Shown here: positions 114-54,771 of the stretch, piece after piece
Position numbering within the stretch: position 1 is the stretch's first letter
Layout: the number at the start of each line of letters is the position of its first letter
Assembly (NCBI GenBank): GCA_018969385.1
Contig: JAGWYL010000003.1
Coordinates: forward strand, 1 to 59,925
Length of the DNA stretch: 59,925 nucleotides
DNA from: Patescibacteria group bacterium
GTDB taxonomy: Bacteria > Patescibacteriota > Minisyncoccia > Phycocordibacterales > Phycocordibacteraceae
Reading direction: 5' to 3'
Program-made: the position numbers and the translations under genes
The notes under the pieces: model-generated
What the model was told of the DNA's origin: nothing
Database searches by the model: none
Seen by the model: only the letters and a program-made list of their open reading frames with translations

Positions 114-704
114 CTAGCTATTCAGGGTGAAAGGCTTTAATCCGTCTATGACGACATCGGCATAGCTTTTTGGGTTATCTCTCGCAAAATATTCGTCTTC
201 CTCCTTAAGCCAGTTTTTCCATTCCGCCTCAACTTCCTTTTGAGTTTTTCCTGTAGCAAGGTCGCGTTCCGTCCCCCGCCTGAAACAGACATCCTCCGGT
301 GTATCGATGAAAATTGCCATACTTATGTACTTTCGAAACTCCCGTCTTGAAGAACTCACACCTTCAAGAATCATAATAGGGGTTACAGGCTTATCGATTA
401 CGGGTTCGGGTTTATGGTTAGGCCACCATTTTGATCGCGGATAACTAATATTAGTTGCACCGGCCATAATTGGCTCAAAGACTCTCTCTATGATAATTGG
501 CCACCAGTTAAGCGGGTTATCCCAACTTGCAAAATCATCCTGACGGATAACCTCAGCGTTCAATACCTCCGAAAGTAGACCTGCAAATGTTGATTTACCA
601 GAACCACCATGCCCGTCTATGGCGATGAAAAGTACATTGCCGACTTTCGGTGATTTTTTTGCGAGAGATTCTCTTATTCGAGCAAGTAGCTCCGAATCGC
701 GCAT
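114..704 (-). CDS. P-loop nucleoside/uridine kinase-like protein
   Basis: IAIDGHGGSGKST Walker A, DDF, ILEGV motifs. Start moved to MRDSELL (704). Visibly more AT-rich than the backbone. Confidence 0.8.
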   Translation of the reverse strand: MRDSELLARIRESLAKKSPKVGNVLFIAIDGHGGSGKSTFAGLLSEVLNAEVIRQDDFASWDNPLNWWPIIIERVFEPIMAGATNISYPRSKWWPNHKPEPVIDKPVTPIMILEGVSSSRREFRKYISMAIFIDTPEDVCFRRGTERDLATGKTQKEVEAEWKNWLKEEDEYFARDNPKSYADVVIDGLKPFTLNS

Positions 705-723
705 TGTCAAAATATACACTATC

Positions 724-754
724 TGTGCGCCCTCTGGCACGAGATTAGAACGGC
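724..754. repeat. 31-bp direct repeat, right copy
   Basis: TGTGCGCCCTCTGGCACGAGATTAGAACGGC; begins with the same TGTGCGCC as the tRNA-Tyr 3' end on this strand. Confidence 0.9.
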
Positions 755-766
755 TATGGAGGGTGT

Positions 767-1297
767 ATGATTCTGGGTATGAATGACTTGCACGCGAGAT
801 GGTCGCATAGATGGCTATCGCCGAAGGCTGAGGCGCGAAAGTCCGCAATTCACGGCACAGGAGTTTTTGCAGTTGAATCCATTAAACAGGGCGAGACCGT
901 CGGCGTGCTTGGCGGGGTCGTCGTGCCCGTGAGCGACATACGTGAATATTGGAAAATCATGGGGCATGTCGGAATTCAGATCGACGATGGATTCTTTATC
1001 GTTCCGACGACACGCGACGAACTCGAAAGCAAAGGCGTTTTTAACCATTCGTGCGATCCGAACATTGGGTACAGCAATAGCATTACCTTTGTCGCAATGC
1101 GAGACATTGGTGCCGGTGAAGAGCTCGTGTTTGACTACGCGTTCAATGAGACCTATCACAACCCTATGGAATGCCATTGCGGCACCGCCCACTGTAGGAA
1201 GATGTTTACGGGAAACGACTGGAAACTGAAAGAATTGCAGGACAGATACGGCGCGTACTTCTCGCCCTATCTCCGTTCGAAGATTGGCAAAGCTTAG
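767..1297 (+). CDS. SET-domain lysine methyltransferase with post-SET cysteines
   Basis: HGTGVFA, NHSCDPN, RDIGAGEELVFDY, CHCGTAHCR motifs; GGAGG upstream. Confidence 0.9.
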   Translation: MILGMNDLHARWSHRWLSPKAEARKSAIHGTGVFAVESIKQGETVGVLGGVVVPVSDIREYWKIMGHVGIQIDDGFFIVPTTRDELESKGVFNHSCDPNIGYSNSITFVAMRDIGAGEELVFDYAFNETYHNPMECHCGTAHCRKMFTGNDWKLKELQDRYGAYFSPYLRSKIGKA

Positions 1298-1299
1298 GT

Positions 1300-1318
1300 G
1301 TGCGCCGGGTAGGATTCG
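1300..1318 (-). repeat. 19-bp duplication of the tRNA-Tyr 3' end (att-like)
   Basis: GTGCGCCGGGTAGGATTCG is identical to 1448-1466. Confidence 0.95.
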
Positions 1319-1365
1319 CCTCTTGGCCTGCTGGCCTCGAGACCTTTGTGCCCTCTTCGGGCACT

Positions 1366-1455
1366 GCGGCCCGCGGTTCGAATCCTCCACCTTTCGGCAC
1401 AAAGCCAGAAAAAGCCGGACATACCGTGTCCGGCTTTTTCTGGCTTTGTGCGCCG
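1366..1455. repeat. Copy 2 of the tRNA-associated hairpin element
   Basis: Identical to 1-90; 25-bp perfect stem at 1397-1421/1427-1451 abutting the tRNA 3' end. Confidence 0.95.
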
Positions 1456-1532
1456 GGTAGGATTCGAACCTACGTAGCCGCAAGGGCGACTGGTTTACAG
1501 CCAGTTGCGATTGACCACTCCGCCACCGACGC
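1449..1532 (-). tRNA. tRNA-Tyr (GTA)
   Basis: Acceptor stem GCGTCGG/CCGGCGC, D arm TGGCGGAGTGGTCAATCGCA, anticodon arm ACTGG-CTGTAAA-CCAGT, long variable arm, GGTTCGAATCC T arm. CCA not encoded. Confidence 0.95.
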
Positions 1533-1561
1533 AATGAGGCTGAGTATAGCCGAAACCCGAA

Positions 1562-2818
1562 CTATCTTCCAGTCTTGAGCACGAGAACATCACGCTTCCC
1601 TTTCCGGACAAGCGCGTGGCCGCCCGGGAGGTCGCCTGCGTAGATTTTCTGGTCGGGGTCGGTAATGGTCATGCCGCCAAGCGTGATGCCCTTCCCTTCG
1701 ATGAGCCGCCGCGCGTCCGACTTCGATGTCGCGACCCCTCCCTCGACGAGCACCTCCGCGAGCGAGCGTCCGGTATCAAGGTCGGACCTTGATACGGTGA
1801 CGGAAGGAGCCTCGGCGAGGGCGACGGCGAGGGCGTCACGGGAAAGCTCCGTGAACGGCGTGTCGCCGAACAAGGCGTCCGTGGCCGCGGCCGCGAAGGC
1901 GGCCGCGGCGGGTCCGTGGACGGCTTCGGTGACGAGGCGCGCGAGCGTTTCCTGCGCCTCGCGCGCGGACGGATCCGCGGCATGCTTCTCCATGAGCGCC
2001 ATGATTTCTCCGATCGGCAGGTCGGTGTACACCATGAAATACCGCTCAAGTCCCGCATCAGGCAACTGCAGCCAGAACTGATAGAACCGGAAGGGCGACG
2101 TCTTCTTCGGGTCGAGCCACACGGGGTTGCCCTCGCTCTTGCCGAATTTCTTGCCGGCCGCGTCCGTGATGAGCGGTACGGTGAGAGCATACGTCTCGGC
2201 ACCGGTCTTCTTCCGAATGAGGTCGACGCCGGAAAGAAGATTCGTCCATTGGTCCGTGCCGCCCACCTGGAGGTCGCAGCCATACTTCGCATGGAGCATC
2301 AGGAAGTCGTAACCCTGGAGGAGCGCGTACGTGAACTCGGTAAAGGAGATGCTCTCGTCCGGCGTCGCAAGGCGCTTCGCGATGAGCTCGCGCTTCACGA
2401 GGTCGTTGACGCTGAAATGCTTCGCGACATCGCGGAGGAACGGGATGAGCTTCAGCTTTCCGAGCCAGTTCGCATTGTCCACCATCGTAAAGCGGGTCTG
2501 GTGGAGGATTCCTTTCAGCTGCTTCTTGAGCGCCTGCGCGTTCTTCGCGAGCGTTTTCTCGTCAAGGAGCGTCCGCTCCCCCACTTCGCGCGGGTCGCCT
2601 ATCATCCCCGTGCCGCCGCCGACGAGGAAGATGAGCTTGTGTCCCGCTTCCCCGAGGCGCTTCATGAGGAGGATGGGCACCAGGTGGCCCACGTGAAGCG
2701 AGTCGGCGGTCGGGTCGATGCCGAGGTACGCGGTCCGGGGCTTTCCCAATATGGTCTCAAGCGGCGCGGAGGTCTGTTCCGCGAGTCCGCGCGCCACGAG
2801 TTCTTCGGCGAATGTCAT
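1562..2818 (-). CDS. tyrS: Tyrosine--tRNA ligase
   Basis: YLGIDPTADSLHVGH, LQGYDF, QVGGTDQWTN, KFGKS motifs and C-terminal S4 domain; start at MTFAEEL. Confidence 0.97.
   Translation of the reverse strand: MTFAEELVARGLAEQTSAPLETILGKPRTAYLGIDPTADSLHVGHLVPILLMKRLGEAGHKLIFLVGGGTGMIGDPREVGERTLLDEKTLAKNAQALKKQLKGILHQTRFTMVDNANWLGKLKLIPFLRDVAKHFSVNDLVKRELIAKRLATPDESISFTEFTYALLQGYDFLMLHAKYGCDLQVGGTDQWTNLLSGVDLIRKKTGAETYALTVPLITDAAGKKFGKSEGNPVWLDPKKTSPFRFYQFWLQLPDAGLERYFMVYTDLPIGEIMALMEKHAADPSAREAQETLARLVTEAVHGPAAAAFAAAATDALFGDTPFTELSRDALAVALAEAPSVTVSRSDLDTGRSLAEVLVEGGVATSKSDARRLIEGKGITLGGMTITDPDQKIYAGDLPGGHALVRKGKRDVLVLKTGR
1773..1795. repeat. Perfect 11-bp-arm palindrome inside tyrS
   Basis: GTATCAAGGTC-G-GACCTTGATAC; encodes VSRSDLDT in frame. 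Confidence 0.7.
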
Positions 2819-2889
2819 ACGGGCTAGTATACCGCATTCGCCGATACGGGAATGCGCGGGCACGCAAGAAGCAGTAGTATACCGGTATC

Positions 2890-3561
2890 ATGAAGCGTCC
2901 ATTCGGCACCATTCTGAAATATGAGGACATGAAGGATGTTCCTGCCGCTGACAGCGGCGAGTCGCTCGTCGAAGTCGGCACGTATGACCCAGCCATCCTT
3001 GCCGAGTATGAGCAGCATGACATGCGTCCGTACACGGGCGAGCAGATATTCGTTCGCGACACGCTCGCACGGAAGCTGGCGAACGTTAATGACGCGCTTA
3101 TGCAAAGCGGATTGCGTCTGCGCGTGGTGTACGGCTATAGGCATCCGGAGGTGCAGACGCTTTATTTCAACCGACGCAAGGATGCACTGCGCAAGGAACG
3201 TGCGCGCCTCTCCGAAGATGAACTTACCGCACTTGCACACAACTACACTGCCGAGCCGTCCCTTGGCGGCCATCCGATGGGAGCGGCCGTCGACCTGACT
3301 ATGGCCGGAAAGGATGGCATGCCGGTTGATATGGGAACTGCCATATCGGACTTCAGCACGGAAAAGATCGTCACTGATGCAGCCGGCCTGACCAGCGAGC
3401 AGGTGCGGAATCGGCGCATGCTTCATGACGCGATGGTTGCCGAAGGATTCGCGCCATACTACGGGGAGTGGTGGCATTTCTCGTATGGAGACAAGGAGTG
3501 GGCGGCATTTTACGGTAGGCCATCCGCACTGTTCGCGCGGGTCAATTTCAAATTCCCGTAG
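2890..3561 (+). CDS. D-alanyl-D-alanine dipeptidase (VanX/DdpX-like, M15)
   Basis: VVYGYR, GGHPMGAAVDLT and EWWHFSYGD zinc-peptidase motifs. Confidence 0.88.
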   Translation: MKRPFGTILKYEDMKDVPAADSGESLVEVGTYDPAILAEYEQHDMRPYTGEQIFVRDTLARKLANVNDALMQSGLRLRVVYGYRHPEVQTLYFNRRKDALRKERARLSEDELTALAHNYTAEPSLGGHPMGAAVDLTMAGKDGMPVDMGTAISDFSTEKIVTDAAGLTSEQVRNRRMLHDAMVAEGFAPYYGEWWHFSYGDKEWAAFYGRPSALFARVNFKFP

Positions 3562-3576
3562 TACAGTAGTACGCAT

Positions 3577-4929
3577 ATGAAGTCAGTCGCAGATACTTGG
3601 AGTCTCGGTGACGGTTCAGTGAATACCGAGCGGTATTCCCCTTCTCTAGCGGGCACGCTGCTCGTCAACGACGGGACGGCTGTCCACGACGTCGCTGAAC
3701 TGGTTGCCCGGTACGGTTCTCCGCTTGAGATTTTCATTCCGGATACGCTTTCGACACGCGTGCGTGCGGTTCGTGACGCGTTTGATGCAGAGATTCGAGC
3801 CGCGGGATACCGCGGCTCTTTCGCATACCACTATCCGATGAAGGTGAATCAGCGGAAGGAGTTCGTCATGACTGCGGTTCGCGCGGGCGCGAACCTGGAA
3901 ACCTCGTCTCGCAACGAGCTCGCGCTCCTGAAGCGCGCATTCGATGACGGTACGCTCCCGAATTCGGTTCGTGTGCTCTGTAATGGCCCCAAGACGGAAG
4001 CATACCTCGCGCTTGCGCTCGAGATGCATCGCGAGGGGCGCAGCGTCACGCCGATAATCGAGAGCGAAGAGGAGCTGCGCGCCCTCGAAACGTATGACGG
4101 ACCCGTCGGCGTCCGTGCGGACATGAAGCTCAAGATAAGCTCTCATTGGGACAAGAAACATAACCGCTTCGGACTTCCTGAAGATCAGCTGCTCTCGCTT
4201 CCAGCGATACCGAATCTCACCATCGTTTCGTATCACATCAGCTCGCAGATCGAGTCGCTCGACGAAGTCGTGAAGCCGGTCGAGCACATCGTCCAGGTGT
4301 ATGCCGCCCTGCACAAAAGGAACCCCGGGCTTACCACCGTGAACATCGGCGGCGGCGCGGGCATCCCGTATAAGAAGAAGCCGCTCTATTCTATCGAGGA
4401 GCTCGCGGCGGGCGTTGTCCATGCGTGCGCAAGCGCCGCGAAGGCCAATGCAGTGGAGCAACCGAACATCATTTGCGAGTGGGGCCGCTTCATGGCGGCA
4501 CCGGCACAGCTTACGGTCTTCAAGATCATCGGCGCGAAGCGCATCGTCGATGCGCCGGCGAAAGCCTGGTACATCATAGACGGCAGTTTCATCACGGACC
4601 TTCCCGATACCTGGTCCATCCACCAGCGCTGGCATTTCGTTCCCGTCAACGGGCTTGGAAGTGCGGGTCAAACGCCGGTCTGGTTCGCGGGAAGTTCGTG
4701 CGACAGTGATGACGAATACGTACCGGACGAGGGCGCGATAATGATGCCGCCGCTTAGCGACTCCGCACTCTATGTAGCGGCACTCGACACGGGTGCATAT
4801 CAGGACTCTCTTTCTTCGCGGCACTGCCTCCTTTCCCATCCGCGCCGCATTGCCTTGGCGGGCGGACACGTGAGCGAGCACGATGCACCGGATACGCCGG
4901 TGTCCATTGGCGCTCTTTTCGGCTGGTGA
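3577..4929 (+). CDS. PLP-dependent fold-type III basic amino acid decarboxylase (arginine decarboxylase-like)
   Basis: YHYPMKVNQ PLP-lysine motif (SpeA-like YPxKxNQ), NIGGG, CEWGRF, SCDSDD, DTGAYQ. Confidence 0.8.
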   Translation: MKSVADTWSLGDGSVNTERYSPSLAGTLLVNDGTAVHDVAELVARYGSPLEIFIPDTLSTRVRAVRDAFDAEIRAAGYRGSFAYHYPMKVNQRKEFVMTAVRAGANLETSSRNELALLKRAFDDGTLPNSVRVLCNGPKTEAYLALALEMHREGRSVTPIIESEEELRALETYDGPVGVRADMKLKISSHWDKKHNRFGLPEDQLLSLPAIPNLTIVSYHISSQIESLDEVVKPVEHIVQVYAALHKRNPGLTTVNIGGGAGIPYKKKPLYSIEELAAGVVHACASAAKANAVEQPNIICEWGRFMAAPAQLTVFKIIGAKRIVDAPAKAWYIIDGSFITDLPDTWSIHQRWHFVPVNGLGSAGQTPVWFAGSSCDSDDEYVPDEGAIMMPPLSDSALYVAALDTGAYQDSLSSRHCLLSHPRRIALAGGHVSEHDAPDTPVSIGALFGW

Positions 4930-14360: not shown

Positions 14361-15482
14361 CTACAGTCCGATGGATGCGAAGAAGTTCGCTCGCGCCGCT
14401 TCGCGGTTCGAAACGGTTTCCGGCGCATGGTAATCAGGGTCAAGAAGCGCATCGAGGCTCACCTCGCACTTTTCCTCCCGCACCGGCAGCCCGAGCGCGA
14501 GGCGCTTCAGCACATAGGCGATGGCCGCTCCGGAAAGCGTCGCCGCGTCGCCCGGCTGCGGCCAGGAGTATATCTCGCGGCCCACCTGGAGGAGCGATTG
14601 CATCATGCGTTCCGTGACGAAGTGCTGCCCTGCTATCTTCGTCGCGAGTTTCGGAAGCTCGGAGGGTTCGAACGACTTGAAAGACTCGAGCGTCACGTCG
14701 CCGATGATGCCGTTGAAGAGCGGCTTTGCGCGGTCGAGGTCGAATCGCTCCGTCTCGATGATGATGTTGTCGCCGTTGTCGGTCGCCATCACCACCGGTA
14801 TGCCGCGCTCGCGCGCGGCGATGCGGAGGCGTATCTTCATCTCAAGGTTGTCCGTTTCCTCGACGAGGACGTCCACGCCCGAGAGGAACTCGGCAAGATT
14901 CCCGTCAGTGACGCCTCCGTCATAGGCCGTGATGTCCGCATAGGGGTCGAGCTGGTAGAGGTACTCGCGCACCAGGTCCGCCTTCTTCCGCCCCACGGAA
15001 AGGAAGTCGAAGCGGATGCGGTTCAGGTTCGACGGGGAGACCTCGTCCGGGTCGGCTATCTTGATGCTCCGCGCGCCACCCATGAGCGCGAACGTAAGTG
15101 CGCCGTGGCTGCCCACGGATAGCCCCGCGTACGCGACGGTGAGTCCATAGAGCTTCTGCTGCTCCTCGTGCGTTACGATATTCCTGTTGCGCGCCGTGCG
15201 AATCTCAAGATGCTCGTCGCAGGGCAGGTAATGCGCAAGCGTGCCGCTCCAGGGAAAGTAGAACCACTCGCCGAGGGCGTCGGGAGCGCGTAGGGCGGCA
15301 TACGCATCCTTATACGCCGCGAGGTCGGCCGCATAATCCTTGATGAACTTATAGCGCGGATTACGGATGAGGAACTGGTCCTCAAGCAGGAGGTCGTACC
15401 GGTCTACCACCCGGGTCGGCGAAAGGCGTGCCTTAAATTCCGCAAAGGTCTCCTTCGCACGATCGAGCCGCTCCGGCCTCAT
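14361..15482 (-). CDS. ThiF/E1-like adenylating enzyme, Rv1355c/MoeY type
   Basis: WFYFPWSG, RTARNRNIVTHEEQ, YAGLSVGS, ADPDEVSPSNLNRI, EETDNLEMK. Confidence 0.88.
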   Translation of the reverse strand: MRPERLDRAKETFAEFKARLSPTRVVDRYDLLLEDQFLIRNPRYKFIKDYAADLAAYKDAYAALRAPDALGEWFYFPWSGTLAHYLPCDEHLEIRTARNRNIVTHEEQQKLYGLTVAYAGLSVGSHGALTFALMGGARSIKIADPDEVSPSNLNRIRFDFLSVGRKKADLVREYLYQLDPYADITAYDGGVTDGNLAEFLSGVDVLVEETDNLEMKIRLRIAARERGIPVVMATDNGDNIIIETERFDLDRAKPLFNGIIGDVTLESFKSFEPSELPKLATKIAGQHFVTERMMQSLLQVGREIYSWPQPGDAATLSGAAIAYVLKRLALGLPVREEKCEVSLDALLDPDYHAPETVSNREAARANFFASIGL

Positions 15483-15506
15483 GGAAAAATCTTAGCACGT
15501 TTCGGC

Positions 15507-17060
15507 TTAGGAAGGGCGCACCACCCATTGCTGCTTCACGCCCGGCCTGAAATAGAGCGGGTCCTCGTACGGCCAGAAGACGAGGCGGGGCTCCGCGCGC
15601 TTTCCGAGGAATTCGGAAAGCTCGCGATACTCGGAATTCTTCTCGCGGAGGTTCTTTACGATTTCCGTAAGCAGTTCCGCCTGGAGCACCTTGCCGGCCT
15701 CCTTGCCGGGCTTCTGCTCGATGTTCACTTCGAGGTACTGGTCCTGGTTGTGGTCGTACTTCGTGACGAGCGCTATCTTGCCCGTCATGTGCGGAGCGAA
15801 CCGCTTGTCGAGGAGCACCTGGCGTATCGTTTCCGGGTAGATCTGGAGCCCGTAGAGCGTCGTCGCGAGGTCGATGCGCTCGTAGACGTAGACGAACGGG
15901 AGCTTCAGCACCTGCTTCGCAATGCCCGCCTTGCGTATCTCGCGCTCGAGATCGATGCCGTGCGTACGGCAGCGCTCGACGATTTCCTTGAACGAATAGA
16001 CGCCGCCGTGGTCGCCGATGGAATAGCGGATGAGCGGGAGCGCGCTGTCCCCCGTGAGGAGGACTTCCCCGTTCGGCGCTTCGAACGAGACGAACTCCGG
16101 CAGGTACTGCGCGAGCGTGGGCGTCTTCATGGTGCCGCGGAAGAGGTCGTTGAAGAGCGCTTCGTTGTCGCGCGCGAGGCGGCGGATGAGTATGGAAAGC
16201 GGCGTCTCGAACGCCATGGTGCCGATGTCGGCGCTGCCGTAGATGTTCGCGGTATCGGTGAGCGGGTTCTTCACGTTCGCGCGCGACGCGACGTAATCGC
16301 GGAACTCCTCGGTGAATGCTTCCGCAGCGAAGAGAAGCGCGACCCGGTGCTTGTCGAACGTCGCGCCATGCGCCGGCGCCTCGTCGATGACGTCTTTCAG
16401 GAACGGCGGGTAGCCGGCCAGTATGAGCTGTTCGTACTGCGGTGCGAGGTCGCGCAGTATCTTGAATATCTCGGACTTGTTGATGCCGGGCGTTATGACG
16501 GAGACGGGATATCCGCGCCGTCCGAGGAGGTCGAACGCCTCATACGTGATGAGTCCGCCGATCCAGACGCCCATACCGAAACAGACGATGACGAGCGTCG
16601 ACTTATTGAGTTCGAGCGAGCTCGAGCGATAGAAGAGCTCGTGTATGAACGAAGAGTGGTCGTCCACTTCGTGCGAACGCCCGAAGTACGTCGGCGCGCC
16701 CGTCGAGCCGGACGTTGCGGTGAGGACGTGCGGCGCGCGCAGCGAACCGTTCCAGAAGAGTTCCTTGAACGGGTATGCGTGCAGGTAATTCTGCTTGGTG
16801 ACCGGAGGCACGATGGCGAGGTCCGACGGCGATTCCACGAGCTCCGCATGCACGTGATTATCCTTGAGGAAGCGCTTGTACGCGGGAACGCCGCTCGCCG
16901 CGCGCTTGAAGAGGTCAAGCGCCGTGCGCTGCTGGCTGCGCGACCATTCCTGGCTCGTTTTCGCGGAGAGCTGCTCGAGCAACGGCACATGCGTTCGCGC
17001 CGCAGCGTTTCCGTTCGCATTCCTACCGCGGCTTATCGGCCGCAGGCTGGATCGCTTCAT
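15507..17060 (-). CDS. Phenylacetate-CoA ligase-like (PaaK/F390 synthetase family) adenylate-forming enzyme
   Basis: TSGSTGAPTYF, FGMGVWIGG, AGYPPFL, YGSADIG, LIRYSIGDHG. Confidence 0.87.
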   Translation of the reverse strand: MKRSSLRPISRGRNANGNAAARTHVPLLEQLSAKTSQEWSRSQQRTALDLFKRAASGVPAYKRFLKDNHVHAELVESPSDLAIVPPVTKQNYLHAYPFKELFWNGSLRAPHVLTATSGSTGAPTYFGRSHEVDDHSSFIHELFYRSSSLELNKSTLVIVCFGMGVWIGGLITYEAFDLLGRRGYPVSVITPGINKSEIFKILRDLAPQYEQLILAGYPPFLKDVIDEAPAHGATFDKHRVALLFAAEAFTEEFRDYVASRANVKNPLTDTANIYGSADIGTMAFETPLSILIRRLARDNEALFNDLFRGTMKTPTLAQYLPEFVSFEAPNGEVLLTGDSALPLIRYSIGDHGGVYSFKEIVERCRTHGIDLEREIRKAGIAKQVLKLPFVYVYERIDLATTLYGLQIYPETIRQVLLDKRFAPHMTGKIALVTKYDHNQDQYLEVNIEQKPGKEAGKVLQAELLTEIVKNLREKNSEYRELSEFLGKRAEPRLVFWPYEDPLYFRPGVKQQWVVRPS

Positions 17061-17079
17061 GTGCGAACACTCTAACACA

Positions 17080-18105
17080 TCATGAGATATTTGTGAAGAC
17101 CTTTGCGAAGTTATCCACAACCCCGCCCATGTCCTCCGGCGAGGGGATGGCGATACGAAGCGTGTCGACGAGGAGTGACTTGGCCTCCGGGAAGCGGCTC
17201 ATATCCTCCCCGAGGGCGACGCGGACGCCGAGTCCCCCGAGCTTTTCGGCTGCCTCGCGCGCATGCGGAACATGAATGAACGCGAAGTTCGTTTCCGTGG
17301 GGAGCGTCTGCACGTTCGGAAGCGCTTGGAGCGCCTCGAAGAAGGACGCTCGCATCCTGATGACCGCGTCGCGCCTCTCCTTCACCTTTTCCGCGCGGCC
17401 AAGGAGCGCGAGCGCCGCAGCGGCGCTTTCGTGCGCGACCGGCCACGGCAGGAGTTCCCTTTGCATGCGTTCCACCGCTTCAGGTGCGGCGATGGCGTAG
17501 CCTACGCGCGCGCCCGGTATGCCGAACGCTTTCGAAAGGGTGCGCAGGATGATGAGATTCGGCTTGAGCGTGAGAGACGGCAGGAGCGTCCGTCCGGAGT
17601 ATTCGAAGTACGCTTCGTCGGAAACCGTGATGACATCATTTAGGGATGCGGTTTCAAGCACGCGCGCGGCATCCGCATCCTTGATGCCGCAGCCGAGCGG
17701 GTTGTTCGGGTTGCAGAGGAACACCGCCTTCGGCTTCCCTGCGGTAATCGCGGCAAGCGTGCGGCGCAGCGGGAATTCCGGCTCTCCCGCCTCGCTTTCG
17801 TACGGCACCGGCACGATTTCCGAACCGACGCGGTCGAGGATGCGCTCATAGCCGTAGAACGTGGGTACGGGCAGCACCGCTTCGCCCTTCCCCACGTACG
17901 CGCGGGCTATCGCCTCTATGGCCGCATCGGAGCCGGGAGTCACGAGGATGCAATCCTCCGGCACGTCGGCGTACGCGGCAAGCGCCGCCTTGAGCGCCGT
18001 GTAGTCCGGATACGTGCCGAGTTCCATCCGCCCGAATCCGCGTGCCGCTTCGACGAGCTCGTCGTCGAGGAGCCAGTAGCTTTCGTTCTTATCGAGGGGA
18101 ATCAT
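17080..18105 (-). CDS. HisC-like class I/II PLP aminotransferase
   Basis: TPGSDAAI, LCNPNNP, DEAYFEY, RTLSKAFGIPGARVGY. Confidence 0.88.
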   Translation of the reverse strand: MIPLDKNESYWLLDDELVEAARGFGRMELGTYPDYTALKAALAAYADVPEDCILVTPGSDAAIEAIARAYVGKGEAVLPVPTFYGYERILDRVGSEIVPVPYESEAGEPEFPLRRTLAAITAGKPKAVFLCNPNNPLGCGIKDADAARVLETASLNDVITVSDEAYFEYSGRTLLPSLTLKPNLIILRTLSKAFGIPGARVGYAIAAPEAVERMQRELLPWPVAHESAAAALALLGRAEKVKERRDAVIRMRASFFEALQALPNVQTLPTETNFAFIHVPHAREAAEKLGGLGVRVALGEDMSRFPEAKSLLVDTLRIAIPSPEDMGGVVDNFAKVFTNIS

Positions 18106-18108
18106 AGG

Positions 18109-18153
18109 GACAGCGTACAGCGTACAGGTTGCAGCGTACAGTCGTACAGGTTG
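18109..18153. repeat. 7-bp-period tandem array
   Basis: GTACAGC/GTACAGG/TTGCAGC units immediately upstream of the aminotransferase start. Confidence 0.85.
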
Positions 18154-18174
18154 TGCATACTGAACGTGGTCAAT

Positions 18175-18203
18175 TTGACATTTGAAACGTGTGGGGGTAT
18201 TAT
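18175..18203 (+). promoter_or_regulatory. Near-consensus sigma70 promoter of the T-box leader
   Basis: TTGACA-17 nt-TATTAT. Confidence 0.85.
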
Positions 18204-18209
18204 CCTTTC

Positions 18210-18510
18210 AGACGATTCCTGATAACCGTAATGCTTTCGATTCCGGTCCCCCGTGAGATAGGCAAAGCCGTCATCTCACGGGGGGTTGGGCCGGAATCGC
18301 TCCGTGAGATAGGCAAAGCCGCCATCTCACGGGGCAAGGCGGCTTCTGCGTGAGTGGAAGCCCGGACTCCCCCGTAATCATGGGATACCCGATGTCGCGA
18401 GAGCGGAGTCGGCATGAGGTTCGCCTTCGGGCGGACAAAGTAAGGTGGCACCGCGGAAATCCGCCCTTACGATACGAGCGCATTGCGTTCGCATCGCGAG
18501 GGCGGTTTTT
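18210..18510 (+). ncRNA. T-box riboswitch leader
   Basis: Stem III GTTCGCC-TTCG-GGCGGAC, T-box AAGGTGGCACCGCGG (18442-18456), antiterminator partner CGCCCTT, terminator CCGCCCT...AGGGCGG followed by T5 (18461-18510). The 5' boundary is estimated from the promoter. Confidence 0.85.
18251..18334 (+). repeat. Two tandem 33-bp hairpin repeats in the T-box leader
   Basis: CCGTGAGATAGGCAAAGCCG(T/C)CATCTCACGGGG at 18251-18283 and 18302-18334, one mismatch. Confidence 0.9.
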
Positions 18511-18549
18511 CATTTTGGAAACCGCATTGTCCTTTGGAAGGGTACTCAG

Positions 18550-19380
18550 ATGACAGAGGAATTCGTGTTCACCAATGAGCTCATCGCCGGGTCTGTAACG
18601 CTCCGTGGCGACGCGAAGGCGGTCATAAGCACCGTCGCATACGAGCATCCCGACGGGATGCCGGCGCGGTTCGCGGCAGGGCTCATTCCGGCATTCGTCC
18701 TCGCACGCCAATTGCGTGAGAGAGGCATCTTCACCATTGTCCGGATCATCGATCCGACGAGGGTGGCCAACTACTGCAACGGCTGGCAGATGGGGTCGGA
18801 TAAGCTTGACCAGGTCGTCGGTGAGCTCGCGGCGATGCTTGAGGATCGGATCAGCACTACCGAATCGTGCATGCCGCTCACGGGAACGAGCATCCGCCTC
18901 CTCCGAAGCTTGGCGAACGAGCTTGAGGAAGCCGATGGCGCTGTGGGCGAGATGCTTGAACGGTTGCGCTGCTCGGGTCGGCGACACGGAGGTGAGAATG
19001 GTGCGCGTAACGTTGCGCTTTACGCGGCTGCACACCCGTTCTCGTGGCTCGATCTCTTGCACGATTCGTTGTGGAGGGGTCGGTCTTATGAGGCATATCA
19101 GCACATAAACCTCATGAGCAAACCGGAGAGCCGCTTCAGCGTGATGCGCGCATATCTCCGCGACCGTCATCCGGAGATCGCATCGAAAGCGCCGAGGATC
19201 GACCTCGAGATGAAGGTCTGCAATACGCCTTGCTACCTTCGCCTCGACGATGAGCCGACCTTCGACGACTTCATGCGCGACGGTTACGACACGACGCTTG
19301 AGACGTATTACGCCTTACGAACGCGGTCGCAGAACCATCGTCGTGCCTATAACGACTTCAAGGTGCTTTCCCGTTACTGA
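18550..19380 (+). CDS. Hypothetical T-box-controlled protein, possibly class I aaRS/CDPS-like fold
   Basis: SD GGAAGG; directly after the T-box terminator and followed by its own terminator. Confidence 0.75.
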   Translation: MTEEFVFTNELIAGSVTLRGDAKAVISTVAYEHPDGMPARFAAGLIPAFVLARQLRERGIFTIVRIIDPTRVANYCNGWQMGSDKLDQVVGELAAMLEDRISTTESCMPLTGTSIRLLRSLANELEEADGAVGEMLERLRCSGRRHGGENGARNVALYAAAHPFSWLDLLHDSLWRGRSYEAYQHINLMSKPESRFSVMRAYLRDRHPEIASKAPRIDLEMKVCNTPCYLRLDDEPTFDDFMRDGYDTTLETYYALRTRSQNHRRAYNDFKVLSRY

Positions 19381-19393
19381 AAGTGCCTATTAC

Positions 19394-19434
19394 GCCCGGT
19401 ACCGCATACTTCGTGCGGCACCGGGCTCCCTTTT
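19394..19434 (+). terminator. Intrinsic terminator-like hairpin
   Basis: GCCCGGTACCGCA / TGCGGCACCGGGC followed by TCCCTTTT. Confidence 0.6.
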
Positions 19435-19461
19435 ATCGGAAACTCCTAGTATGATTCGCCT

Positions 19462-20154
19462 ATGAAGACACTCGGCATGCTCGGCGGCGTCGGTCCGCAG
19501 ACGACCGCGGAGACCTATCTTTCGGTCATAGAGGCGGTCCGCAAGGCCGGCCGCGACTCCTATCCCCCCATCGTCGTGTACAATCTCCCCTTTCCCTTCC
19601 GCGTCGAACGCGAAGCGATAGTGGAAGGAAGGAACGCGGAGCAGATGATTCCCTTCCTGACCGAGGGTGCTCGGGTTCTCGAACGTTCGGGTGCCGATTT
19701 CGGCATCCTTCCCTGCAATACGCTCCACGCTTACATCGAGGATGTCCGAAAGGCGTCCTCCGTCCCTTTCCTGTCCATACTTGAGGAAACGGCGCGCGCG
19801 CTTTCTGCGTTCGAACCGAAGACGATAGGATTCCTGGCGACACGCTCCACGCTCGCAAGCGGCATATACGAGCGCGCGCTCGCAGGGACCGGACGAGCGT
19901 TCGTCTATCCGGCGGAGGATGAACAGATGGCGCTTACGGAGATGATAGTGCGCCTCCTTGCGGGTTCCCCCGGATATGAAGAACGCGCGGTCGTGGAGAC
20001 GGTGGCGGAGTCGCTCGCCGCCCGCGGCGCAGACGTCATCCTGCTCGCCTGCACCGATATCCAGCTCGCGGCGAGACACGCTGACGTGCCCGTGCCGATA
20101 GTCGACACGATGGAAGTGCTTGGCAATGCGGCTGTTCGCGAACTCCTCGCCTGA
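19462..20154 (+). CDS. Second aspartate/glutamate racemase family protein
   Basis: GMLGGVGP, PCNT, ACTD motifs. Confidence 0.9.
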   Translation: MKTLGMLGGVGPQTTAETYLSVIEAVRKAGRDSYPPIVVYNLPFPFRVEREAIVEGRNAEQMIPFLTEGARVLERSGADFGILPCNTLHAYIEDVRKASSVPFLSILEETARALSAFEPKTIGFLATRSTLASGIYERALAGTGRAFVYPAEDEQMALTEMIVRLLAGSPGYEERAVVETVAESLAARGADVILLACTDIQLAARHADVPVPIVDTMEVLGNAAVRELLA

Positions 20155-54293: not shown

Positions 54294-54771
54294 AGGAAAG
54301 ACGCTTAGCCGGGTAATGCTGGCGCGTCGTGTATCTATAGACACTGAACCGCATGCCAGCTGGTCTTGCGACCCGTGACCCTTTCGGACCACGACCCAAC
54401 GAAGGAATGGCTGAACATGCGGTTCAGTGTCTTCGTTGGGTTTTCTTGGCCATGCCTACGGTTTAAGCCGTAAGTTTAGGCCACTCACCTATAAATCTTA
54501 TCATGTGACTAAAGAGAACCCTATGCACTAGGGTAAAGTCCATAAAACACGATTTGCGATTATGCACTGGAGTAAATATCAGACGATATGTTTTGATCCG
54601 ATTGTTACTTACTCTTGCTAGCTTTAGCGGTTTTGAGAGCCAGCCGTTTTGCTTCCCGCTTTCGTCCACCCCTCCAAAGCGTCCTATTGTCCGGTGGCGG
54701 GAGTTTGATAGTGAAGTTGAACGGAATCCCCTTCCCTCGCCCTGAGCCTAAAAATTGGCCGCTAGAGAGCA

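Follow-up and report, generated by a model that had tools for sequence, protein, structure and literature searches.

T-boxes with a truncated Stem I were reportedly described in the leaders of actinobacterial ileS genes by Sherwood et al. in 2015. A Stem I of this kind, which lacks the platform for the tRNA elbow, is typical of translational, mostly actinobacterial T-boxes that depend on Stem II, and transcriptional T-boxes generally need the platform (PMC7583486). A literature search for T-boxes in the candidate phyla radiation (CPR)/Patescibacteria gave no reports. Here we describe a T-box variant, and the gene downstream of it, in a 59,925-nt stretch of contig JAGWYL010000003.1 (assembly GCA_018969385.1; Patescibacteria group bacterium, family Phycocordibacteraceae), which is called the window hereafter. 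The leader is almost certainly a tryptophan T-box. The gene, designated X, encodes a 276-aa protein of an uncharacterised family with a known fold class and a well-constrained regulatory and genomic context. The reading that we rate a little better than even is that X is a starvation-induced, synthetase-derived partner of a racemase in the salvage of aromatic amino acids.

A search of the leader region of X at the Rfam gathering threshold gave no T-box match. A permissive local search placed T-box RF00230 at 18307-18471 with 34.9 bits (E = 4e-6), short of the gathering score of 93; the alignment was good across Stem II, Stem IIA/B, Stem III and the antiterminator, and the 91 Stem I positions of the model were reduced to 22 nt. 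What lowers the score is Stem I, which is short and has no platform for the tRNA elbow; the leader is canonical in its 3' half but not in its 5' half. To avoid circularity in testing the 5' half, a covariance model (R1; 150 positions, 37 pairs) was built from 11 homologous leaders with the window excluded, and it gave a single match in the 59.9 kb, at 18234-18417, with 95.1 bits (E = 2.6e-25). In an alignment of 12 whole leaders (A3), RNAalifold found compensatory changes in 33 of 52 pairs. When the specified structure including the antiterminator was imposed on these leaders, 96.5% of the cells were paired, as compared with 38-54% when the 3' partners were slid, and double changes were present at 24 pairs; the observed values were reached by none of 500 shuffles. 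A transcription-attenuating T-box for tRNA-Trp is thus the identity to which sequence and covariation point. Rfam has no separate model for this class.

A preliminary description of this DNA had proposed a T-box unit consisting of promoter, leader with Stem III, T-box, antiterminator and terminator, Shine-Dalgarno (SD) sequence, 276-aa gene and final terminator. Every part was found again at its proposed position, and the T-box itself is borne out by the sub-threshold Rfam match, the R1 match and the covariation; Stem I, which is the atypical part, had gone undescribed. The elements as far as the end of X are as follows.

18175..18203, forward strand: sigma-70-type promoter TTGACA-17-TATTAT, with 11 of 12 consensus matches; the sole such site in 18000-19600.
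18238..18299, forward strand: Stem I; double changes in 11 of the 14 pairs of helices 1 and 2.
18299..18335, forward strand: extra hairpin between Stem I and Stem II.
18341..18362, forward strand: Stem II, GGCUUCUGC / GUGGAAGCC, aligned to the Stem II of Rfam; helix 3 is 100% paired, with 5 double-change pairs.
18368..18385, forward strand: Stem IIA region with the F-box-like invariant CCGUAAUCAUGGGAUA; covarying helix 4.
18389..18412, forward strand: covarying helix CCGAU/GUCGG, closing a variable hairpin between Stem IIA/B and Stem III; double changes in 4 of 6 pairs.
18419..18436, forward strand: Stem III, GUUCGCC UUCG GGCGGAC, -11.8 kcal/mol.
18442..18468, forward strand: T-box and antiterminator, AAGG-UGGCACC-GCGG...CCGC-CCUU, with helices A1 (AAGG/CCUU) and A2 (GCGG/CCGC).
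18461..18510, forward strand: intrinsic terminator, an inverted repeat (hairpin 18461-18505) followed by UUUUU.
18536-18542, forward strand: SD-like GGAAGGG of X.
18550..19380, forward strand: gene X, 276 aa, ATG at 18550; predicted class Ic aminoacyl-tRNA synthetase-like fold without HIGH and KMSKS.

The T-box leader, including antiterminator and terminator, is about 300 nt long, and the stretch from promoter to ATG about 340 nt. A longer open reading frame (ORF) of 311 aa from the GTG at 18445 was ruled out, as its start falls within the T-box sequence.

Stem I consists of a lower helix of 9-10 bp (18238-18247 paired with 18290-18299), a distal hairpin (18248-18284) and, on the 3' side, a 5-nt bulge GUUGG (18285-18289) that carries the specifier UGG at 18287-18289 and is followed by G18290. 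It has neither an AG bulge nor a distal-loop platform of interdigitated T-loops for the tRNA elbow, and does not qualify as a canonical long Stem I. The distal hairpin varies in length between leaders and is missing in locus L011, where the specifier lies in the hairpin loop UAAAUGG. The 33-nt core of the extra hairpin (18302-18334) is a 97% copy of the distal hairpin of Stem I (18251-18283), and in other leaders the place is taken by a short hairpin that varies. Pairing would also be possible between the 5' arm of the first copy and the 3' arm of the second, and the specifier would then be enclosed. A dispersed repeat was ruled out, as no further copies are present in the window.

Further downstream, CCGUAA(U/C)CA is invariant in the leader alignment, and a Stem IIA/B pseudoknot is putative. 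The antiterminator has a 7-nt bulge UGGCACC at 18446-18452, and its A1 and A2 helices are paired in 98-100% of the cells and covary (pair 289-327: AU 7, GC 5). Since the 5' arm of the terminator overlaps the 3' half of the antiterminator, the two folds are mutually exclusive, with predicted energies of -31.6 kcal/mol for the terminator versus -8.0 kcal/mol for the antiterminator. Such an imbalance is usual in T-boxes, where the less stable fold depends on the tRNA for its stabilisation. The leader of locus L020 (244-406; R1 22.6 bits) is a minimal variant, with a short Stem I and the T-box bulge UGGUAUC; Stem II and Stem IIA/B are absent from it.

UGG followed by G is the sole triplet common to all 18 leaders aligned to R1 (that of L033 read by hand). 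A UUG (Leu) specifier was ruled out by AUGGG in L011 and GUGGG in L033, and a GGG (Gly) specifier by the bulge base N of UGGN, which is C or U across the leaders and misfits the discriminator of tRNA-Gly, which we take to be U73. ARAGORN detected tRNA-Trp(CCA) genes within a few kb of X in 9 of 26 loci, and all of these 10 genes have G73, to which C18449 of the bulge is complementary. Trp T-boxes are the family in which about half have U opposite G73, and the mix of UGGC and UGGU in the X leaders matches this (TBDB, PMC7778990). The tRNA with discriminator G73 that the preliminary description had predicted from the UGGC bulge can now be named as tRNA-Trp from the specifier and the nearby tRNA genes.

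The closest described leaders are the actinobacterial ileS T-boxes with ultrashort Stem I, for which structures from M. tuberculosis and N. farcinica are available (PMC7583486). They share with the leader of X the short Stem I without T-loop platform, the placing of the specifier in a small loop (in the X leader of L011, a hairpin loop), Stem II, Stem IIA/B including an F-box-like CCGUAA, Stem III and the canonical form of the UGGN bulge. They differ from it in regulating translation by SD sequestration, whereas the leader of X has a terminator with a U-run and a free SD; their specifier is Ile, whereas that of X is Trp, its host belongs to the CPR/Patescibacteria, and it has the extra hairpin between Stem I and Stem II. 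With the Trp T-boxes of Firmicutes (trpS, the trp operon, rtpA/anti-TRAP), the leader of X shares the UGG specifier and the UGGC/UGGU bulge that pairs with G73 (PMC7778990), as well as a terminator/antiterminator switch and induction by uncharged tRNA-Trp, which for X is predicted. The Firmicutes leaders differ in their long Stem I with K-turn, AG bulge and distal loop, and reach the Rfam gathering score; the gene under the T-box of X is, unlike theirs, neither a synthetase gene, a biosynthetic gene nor a transporter gene. What is unusual about the leader of X is that a truncated Stem I occurs together with a plain intrinsic terminator and an SD that is not sequestered.

The upstream regions of 37 distinct members of the X family were classed, and three types of regulatory element were recognised.

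16 of 37 distinct genes: Trp T-box of the X class.
4 of 37 genes: TrpR-type operator ACTAGTATGCTAGT, near-palindromic TATACTAGTATGCTAGTATA, over the promoter, with two CTAG cores.
3 of 37 genes: short ORF with tandem Trp codons (WW/WWW), then a terminator (MSYQFPKMNNWWGSF..., ...SSAWWWALK...).

In three further operons, the Trp T-box precedes a gene for a low-molecular-weight (LMW) phosphatase-like or GNAT protein, which is followed by X; L041, with a GNAT-X operon, is one of the loci where this T-box class is found. Loci with the TrpR operator carry a Pfam Trp_repressor gene after the racemase in the same cluster, and the spacing of the CTAG cores is presumably that of the E. coli trp operator. 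One candidate of the third type, a 'WW leader peptide' in L025, was ruled out, because it is the C-terminus of an upstream transposase-like ORF. By these upstream sequences, X appears to belong to a tryptophan regulon, with three independent sensors placed before orthologous genes. Because T-box, TrpR and ribosome-mediated attenuation are all switched on at low Trp or low charged tRNA-Trp, the time at which X is needed is fixed independently of its fold.

Genes of tryptophan charging are found in the same neighbourhoods. Canonical tryptophanyl-tRNA synthetase (TrpRS) genes are present in 18 X loci, sometimes in two copies, and tRNA-Trp genes cluster with X. In L045, which belongs to a reduced CPR genome, the 4.5 kb upstream of X contain two genes each for canonical TrpRS and tRNA-Trp(CCA) (649-4331). 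Two TrpRS-like genes are also present in L001 and L012, and one copy of L012 has an N-terminal Cys-rich extension and a degenerate KMSKS. In L012, the same Trp T-box class (3366-3210, minus strand) precedes an operon for a protein of 260 aa that weakly matches GCS2/amidoligase and for an AstE/AspA-type deacylase of 252 aa, and a tRNA-Trp gene follows on the same strand. LMW-phosphatase/ArsC-type genes (Pfam LMWPc) adjoin X in 8 loci, including L001 (10672-11247) and L045 (4431-4841), and in L018 (1957-2499) and L036 such a gene lies between T-box and X.

A sister group, subfamily 2 (about 326 aa, Microgenomates), is homologous to X, a member of subfamily 1, over its full length (hhalign of alignment A1 versus A5, probability 100, E = 6e-43). 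In L055 and L056, two of its loci, the T-boxes are near-canonical (Rfam 77-87 bits): Stem I is long, UAC (Tyr) is the specifier, and the bulge, UGGU, would be complementary to A73, presumably the discriminator of tRNA-Tyr; in L055, the racemase is followed by a tyrosyl-tRNA synthetase (TyrRS) gene. The leaders of L050-L052 contain a short ORF with ...NYWYH... or ...NWYY..., then a terminator. Each branch is thus apparently switched on by starvation for its own amino acid, through T-box, TrpR operator or attenuator. In the Tyr T-boxes of L055 (2694-2988) and L056 (2657-2948), an additional GC-rich hairpin with a U-run (e.g., AUCCCCGCGGCGGGGAUUUUUUU) lies between Stem IIA/B and the T-box sequence and looks like a second terminator within the leader. 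In a third, more distant group, the gene for P0121 is followed by an Asp_Glu_race gene (weak Pfam match) and a tRNA-synt_1b gene; that for P0069 has tRNA-Trp on its 5' side and two aminotransferases, an amino-acid dehydrogenase and an M20 peptidase on its 3' side.

A word-indexed search found 34 homologues of X of about 280 aa with 39-50% identity, none of which has a Pfam domain; the sole named one belongs to a Candidatus Liptonbacteria genome. When 1.8 billion representatives were searched exhaustively with a profile, 68 clusters were obtained: those of the core family, those of a group with about 320 aa, and longer, more distant proteins. Pfam domains are absent from all of them except P0082, which has an X-related region 5' of a TyrRS. 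The label of an orphan that X had been given therefore has to be dropped. Ten genome loci of the family all belong to Patescibacteria/CPR, to which it appears to be confined. P0082 (861 aa, from the representative library) carries its distant relative of the X domain N-terminal to the TyrRS (hhalign probability 80). It has Trp where its relatives have a conserved Gly, which suggests that its source organism reads UGA as Gly and that the protein was translated with the wrong code. No meaningful match to X was obtained in Pfam, NCBIfam or PDB sequences, either with the single sequence or with the profile; matches to Fib_alpha, SSB and allantoicase (E > 0.02) were dismissed as noise. In the literature, we found no description of the family and nothing relevant on synthetase paralogues with racemase or TrpRS in Patescibacteria.

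The invariant blocks of the family alignment are PARF, RxxDP, CNGW, SGxxHGGxxG, YxAAHPFSW, NLMSxxE, CNTPCY and EP, and a helix carries the invariant motif Y158-x3-H162-P163. R40, R65, N77, W166, S190, E193, Y229 and E235 are likewise invariant. HIGH and KMSKS are absent from the alignment, which has, after strand 1, YEHxxGMPARF (without the His in subfamily 2) and, after strand 5, CNTPCY...EP. AlphaFold2 (AF2) on the family alignment gave a model with a predicted local distance difference test score (pLDDT) of 91.5 and a predicted template modelling score (pTM) of 0.87; its Rossmann-like core has five strands, a helical segment is inserted between strands 3 and 4, and two helices lie at the C-terminus. 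A Foldseek search of the PDB placed TrpRS and TyrRS at the top, then other class I synthetases (probability up to 1.00, E about 3e-3, template modelling (TM) score 0.33-0.44). For an independent AF2 model of the 326-aa subfamily (pLDDT 90.2), the top 50 were almost only TyrRS and TrpRS, with E down to 2e-4. A class Ic-like fold is likely from these models, and the class I synthetase-like fold suggested in the preliminary description could be specified in this way, TrpRS and TyrRS being nearly all of the top matches of both models.

X is not, as far as its sequence indicates, a member of the class Ic synthetases of PF00579, as it lacks HIGH and KMSKS and has no profile match. To TrpRS and TyrRS it is akin in that they are the best predicted-fold matches of both subfamilies, in that it has a Trp and a Tyr branch, and in its genomic linkage with TrpRS, TyrRS and tRNA-Trp genes; it differs from them in lacking HIGH, KMSKS and GxDQ and profile similarity, in being shorter and in the low TM score. 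These data bear on the possibility that X is a minimal but genuine second TrpRS, induced by starvation like a T-box-controlled trpS. T-boxes most often control synthetase genes, TrpRS is the best fold match and duplicated TrpRS genes are already present in several loci, all of which would suit such an enzyme. We regard it as very improbable because the motifs are missing; in addition, neither a Pfam tRNA-synt_1b match nor an hhalign signal against TrpRS was obtained, X has 276 aa versus 327-354 aa in the canonical TrpRS of the same loci, and these canonical genes coexist with X. The likeness by eye of 'LYMAAHPF' in X to the 'LMAADIL' helix of TrpRS was left unused as unproven, the hhalign comparison being null.

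The same fold and motifs bear on the proposal, made in the preliminary description, of a resemblance to cyclodipeptide synthases (CDPSs). A CDPS-like X would consume aminoacyl-tRNA to make a Trp-containing cyclodipeptide or a similar product. The hallmarks of CDPSs are a catalytic Ser in G-x-S and a Y-x3-E-x-P motif. X is of similar size and has a class Ic-related fold in which the ATP motifs are absent, as in CDPSs, and its Y-x3-H-P loosely recalls their motif. The resemblance to YxxxExP on which the proposal had leaned does not hold, since the Glu of the CDPS motif is replaced by the invariant His162, and X has no G-x-S after strand 1 (S27-x-V29 lies within the strand). CDPSs also consume aminoacyl-tRNA and have no sequence match to X: neither Pfam CDPS nor tRNA-synt_1b was matched at E <= 0.1, and no CDPS was among the best 50 PDB matches of either model. 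Moreover, the three sensors predict that scarcity of Trp-tRNA is needed to switch X on, the opposite of what would suit a consumer of Trp-tRNA. Because of the missing motifs and this starvation logic, a CDPS-like activity is hardly credible, even less so than a second TrpRS.

The conserved partner of X, unseen in the preliminary description, is a racemase gene directly downstream.

19394..19434, forward strand: hairpin GCCCGGUACCGCA...UGCGGCACCGGGC (19394-19426), then UCCCUUUUAU; likely terminator of the X transcript.
19450..19455, forward strand: -10-like TATGAT, 6 nt 5' of the racemase ATG; the racemase gene has no SD.
19462..20154, forward strand: Asp/Glu-family amino-acid racemase (PF01177, TIGR00035) with catalytic Cys85 and Cys197.

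The racemase matches PF01177 with 130.5 bits and TIGR00035 with 158.8 bits (cut-off 93.1). An Asp/Glu-type racemase lies directly 3' of X on the same strand in 35 of 49 subfamily 1 loci, and directly downstream also in six loci of more distant relatives. Five subfamily 2 loci were read, of which four have a 4-nt overlap between X and the racemase gene and one has the racemase gene beginning 1 nt after X. In the 31 partner racemases, the two catalytic Cys are conserved without exception. A functional coupling of X to the racemase is very probable. L001 and L007, which are without an Asp/Glu racemase, have X followed by genes for an unknown 483-aa protein, an enolase-superfamily racemase and an AstE/AspA-type deacylase.

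In subfamily 1, the spacer between X and racemase contains a hairpin with the conserved stem base (U)ACCCRRAAC...GUUUYGGGU(A), then a U-run, in more than 20 loci from distant genomes, and the hairpin at 19394-19434 is its positional counterpart in the window. To judge from the sequences, the conservation of the stem base exceeds what a plain terminator would need. In many subfamily 1 loci, a TAGTATAAT-like -10 element lies 6-9 nt before the ATG of the racemase, which has no SD, and the window has the same layout. The T-box would accordingly control X alone, as the preliminary description had it, and the racemase would be expressed from its own promoter as a leaderless mRNA; the hairpin after X, the -10-like element and the missing SD agree with control of a single gene.

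HisZ is a paralogue of histidyl-tRNA synthetase that regulates HisG, and provides the precedent for an explanation in which X is solely a regulatory or specificity subunit, i.e., a catalytically dead paralogue of a synthetase that would bind L-Trp and would switch or redirect a racemase made constitutively. The loss of the ATP motifs with retention of the fold and of the invariant Y-x3-H-P helix would be expected of such a subunit, as would the arrangement in which the racemase seems to have its own promoter and only X is regulated by Trp; the translational coupling of X and racemase in subfamily 2 suggests a complex. The complex is, however, putative, and neither the L001-type loci, where X stands without an Asp/Glu racemase, nor the TyrRS fusion would be explained. 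We consider this explanation unlikely as the sole role of X. HisZ and CDPSs are both like X in using a synthetase-derived domain without amino-acid activation in amino-acid metabolism, with or instead of another enzyme. HisZ differs in being of class II and in having a phosphoribosyltransferase as its partner, whereas that of X is a racemase, and there is no sequence match.

In Geobacillus, D-amino acids are converted to the L-form through N-succinylation, an N-succinylamino-acid racemase and a desuccinylase. In some CPR genomes, GNAT, enolase-superfamily racemase and AstE/AspA deacylase genes similarly lie beside X or under the same Trp T-box class. The Geobacillus route differs in that it has no synthetase-like protein, and most X loci have only X and the cofactor-independent Asp/Glu-type racemase.

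The racemase also raises the question of tRNA chirality. D-Tyr, D-Trp and D-Asp are the classical D-amino acids that are loaded on tRNA and removed by D-aminoacyl-tRNA deacylase (DTD) (PMC1807948). X might be a guard or converter of tRNA chirality, either as a new D-aminoacyl-tRNA deacylase or, together with the racemase, as an epimerase acting on D-Trp-tRNA(Trp), or on D-Tyr-tRNA in the Tyr branch; on this view, the exposure of TrpRS and TyrRS to D-amino acids by a cytosolic racemase would call for a guard. Consistent with it, the family has exactly a Trp and a Tyr branch, both among the D-amino acids cleared by DTD (PMC1807948), its fold is that of enzymes that hold the aminoacyl-A76 end, and X is co-located with TrpRS, TyrRS and tRNA-Trp genes; the distant relative fused N-terminally to TyrRS in P0082 is arranged like an editing domain. 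However, induction of a T-box depends on uncharged tRNA and would not be achieved by a D-charged one, the X proteins are mildly acidic (median pI 6.4 and 5.6), and the fusion is a single protein with an hhalign probability of 80. Such a guard is improbable, somewhat more so than a purely regulatory subunit. Less probable still, and put forward as speculation, is a system of X and racemase that lets auxotrophs use D-Trp (D-Tyr in the sister branch) for translation, with X epimerising or deacylating D-aminoacyl esters, on aminoacyl-tRNA or with TrpRS/TyrRS. If this were true, X would belong to a new class of factors for the proofreading or conversion of chirality, with the charging of the cognate tRNA as the switch.

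According to the mechanism that we propose for X as a starvation-induced racemase partner, the anticodon CCA of tRNA-Trp would read the UGG specifier in the 5-nt bulge of the short Stem I, and the 3' end G73-CCA of the uncharged tRNA would pair with UGGC of the antiterminator bulge. This pairing would stabilise the weak antiterminator against the much stronger terminator, and X would be transcribed only when tRNA-Trp is poorly charged. The synthetase-derived pocket of X may bind tryptophan or a tryptophanyl derivative, and X and the racemase together may convert D-Trp, or D-/N-acyl Trp, to L-Trp usable for charging. X could act in this as a specificity or regulatory subunit of the racemase in the manner of HisZ, or could provide the step in which the product is passed on to TrpRS or the tRNA is guarded. 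A role of X in Trp supply is probable, and D-to-L salvage as its specific form is less likely than not. CPR bacteria are generally without amino-acid biosynthesis, and a salvage role of X therefore fits. The preliminary description had left the choice between a tRNA-dependent enzyme and a new amino-acid-supply protein; the latter fits best, with the racemase partner as the main new clue, and a CDPS-type enzyme does not fit.

Several points weigh against this interpretation. The Foldseek likeness is weak (TM 0.33-0.44, E = 2e-4 to 3e-3), and hhalign of the X family against 15 CPR TrpRS from X loci gave no signal (probability 0.1). To our knowledge, Asp/Glu-type racemases normally act alone, and we know of none for aromatic substrates. 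A promoter of its own seems to serve the racemase in subfamily 1; in that case, the racemase is not induced together with X, and a regulatory or guarding role then fits at least as well as a two-step pathway. No regulatory element was recognised upstream of about 10 of the 37 family members, and the 59.9-kb window contains no genes for TrpRS, TrpR (tblastn) or tRNA-Trp. The biochemical mechanism of X is inferred, and any natural source of D-Trp would be putative. Finally, if transcriptional T-boxes generally need the Stem I platform (PMC7583486), the leader of X would either bind tRNA differently or be less efficient.

Upstream of X, the minus strand carries at 14361-18105 an operon of three overlapping genes that is divergent from X and encodes a ThiF/E1-like protein (Rv1355c family, 244.8 bits), a PaaK-like adenylate-forming enzyme, for which no Pfam match was obtained, and a HisC-like aminotransferase; the distant relative P0069 also has aminotransferases beside it. 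Four copies of CGTACAG are located at 18112-18153, in the interval that separates the promoter of X from the start of the divergent aminotransferase gene at 18105 (minus strand); they include two of CGTACAGGTTG spaced 22 nt apart and may be a binding site of a regulator. The sole tRNA gene of the window is tRNA-Tyr(GTA) at 1448-1532 on the minus strand. A LOOT RNA (Rfam RF03000) was found at 54362-54482 on the minus strand with 81.9 bits (threshold 46.4), and a second copy is present in the related locus L010 (3977-4099).

The leader of X, as a transcription-terminating T-box without a platform that is treated as generally essential, would widen the known design space of T-boxes, and its model R1 offers a means to find further T-boxes missed at the Rfam threshold. 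X may add a new functional type to the synthetase paralogues HisZ, CDPS, GluQRS and EpmA. Its context gives a testable entry into how CPR bacteria secure aromatic amino acids, and points to an undescribed response of these bacteria to Trp starvation.

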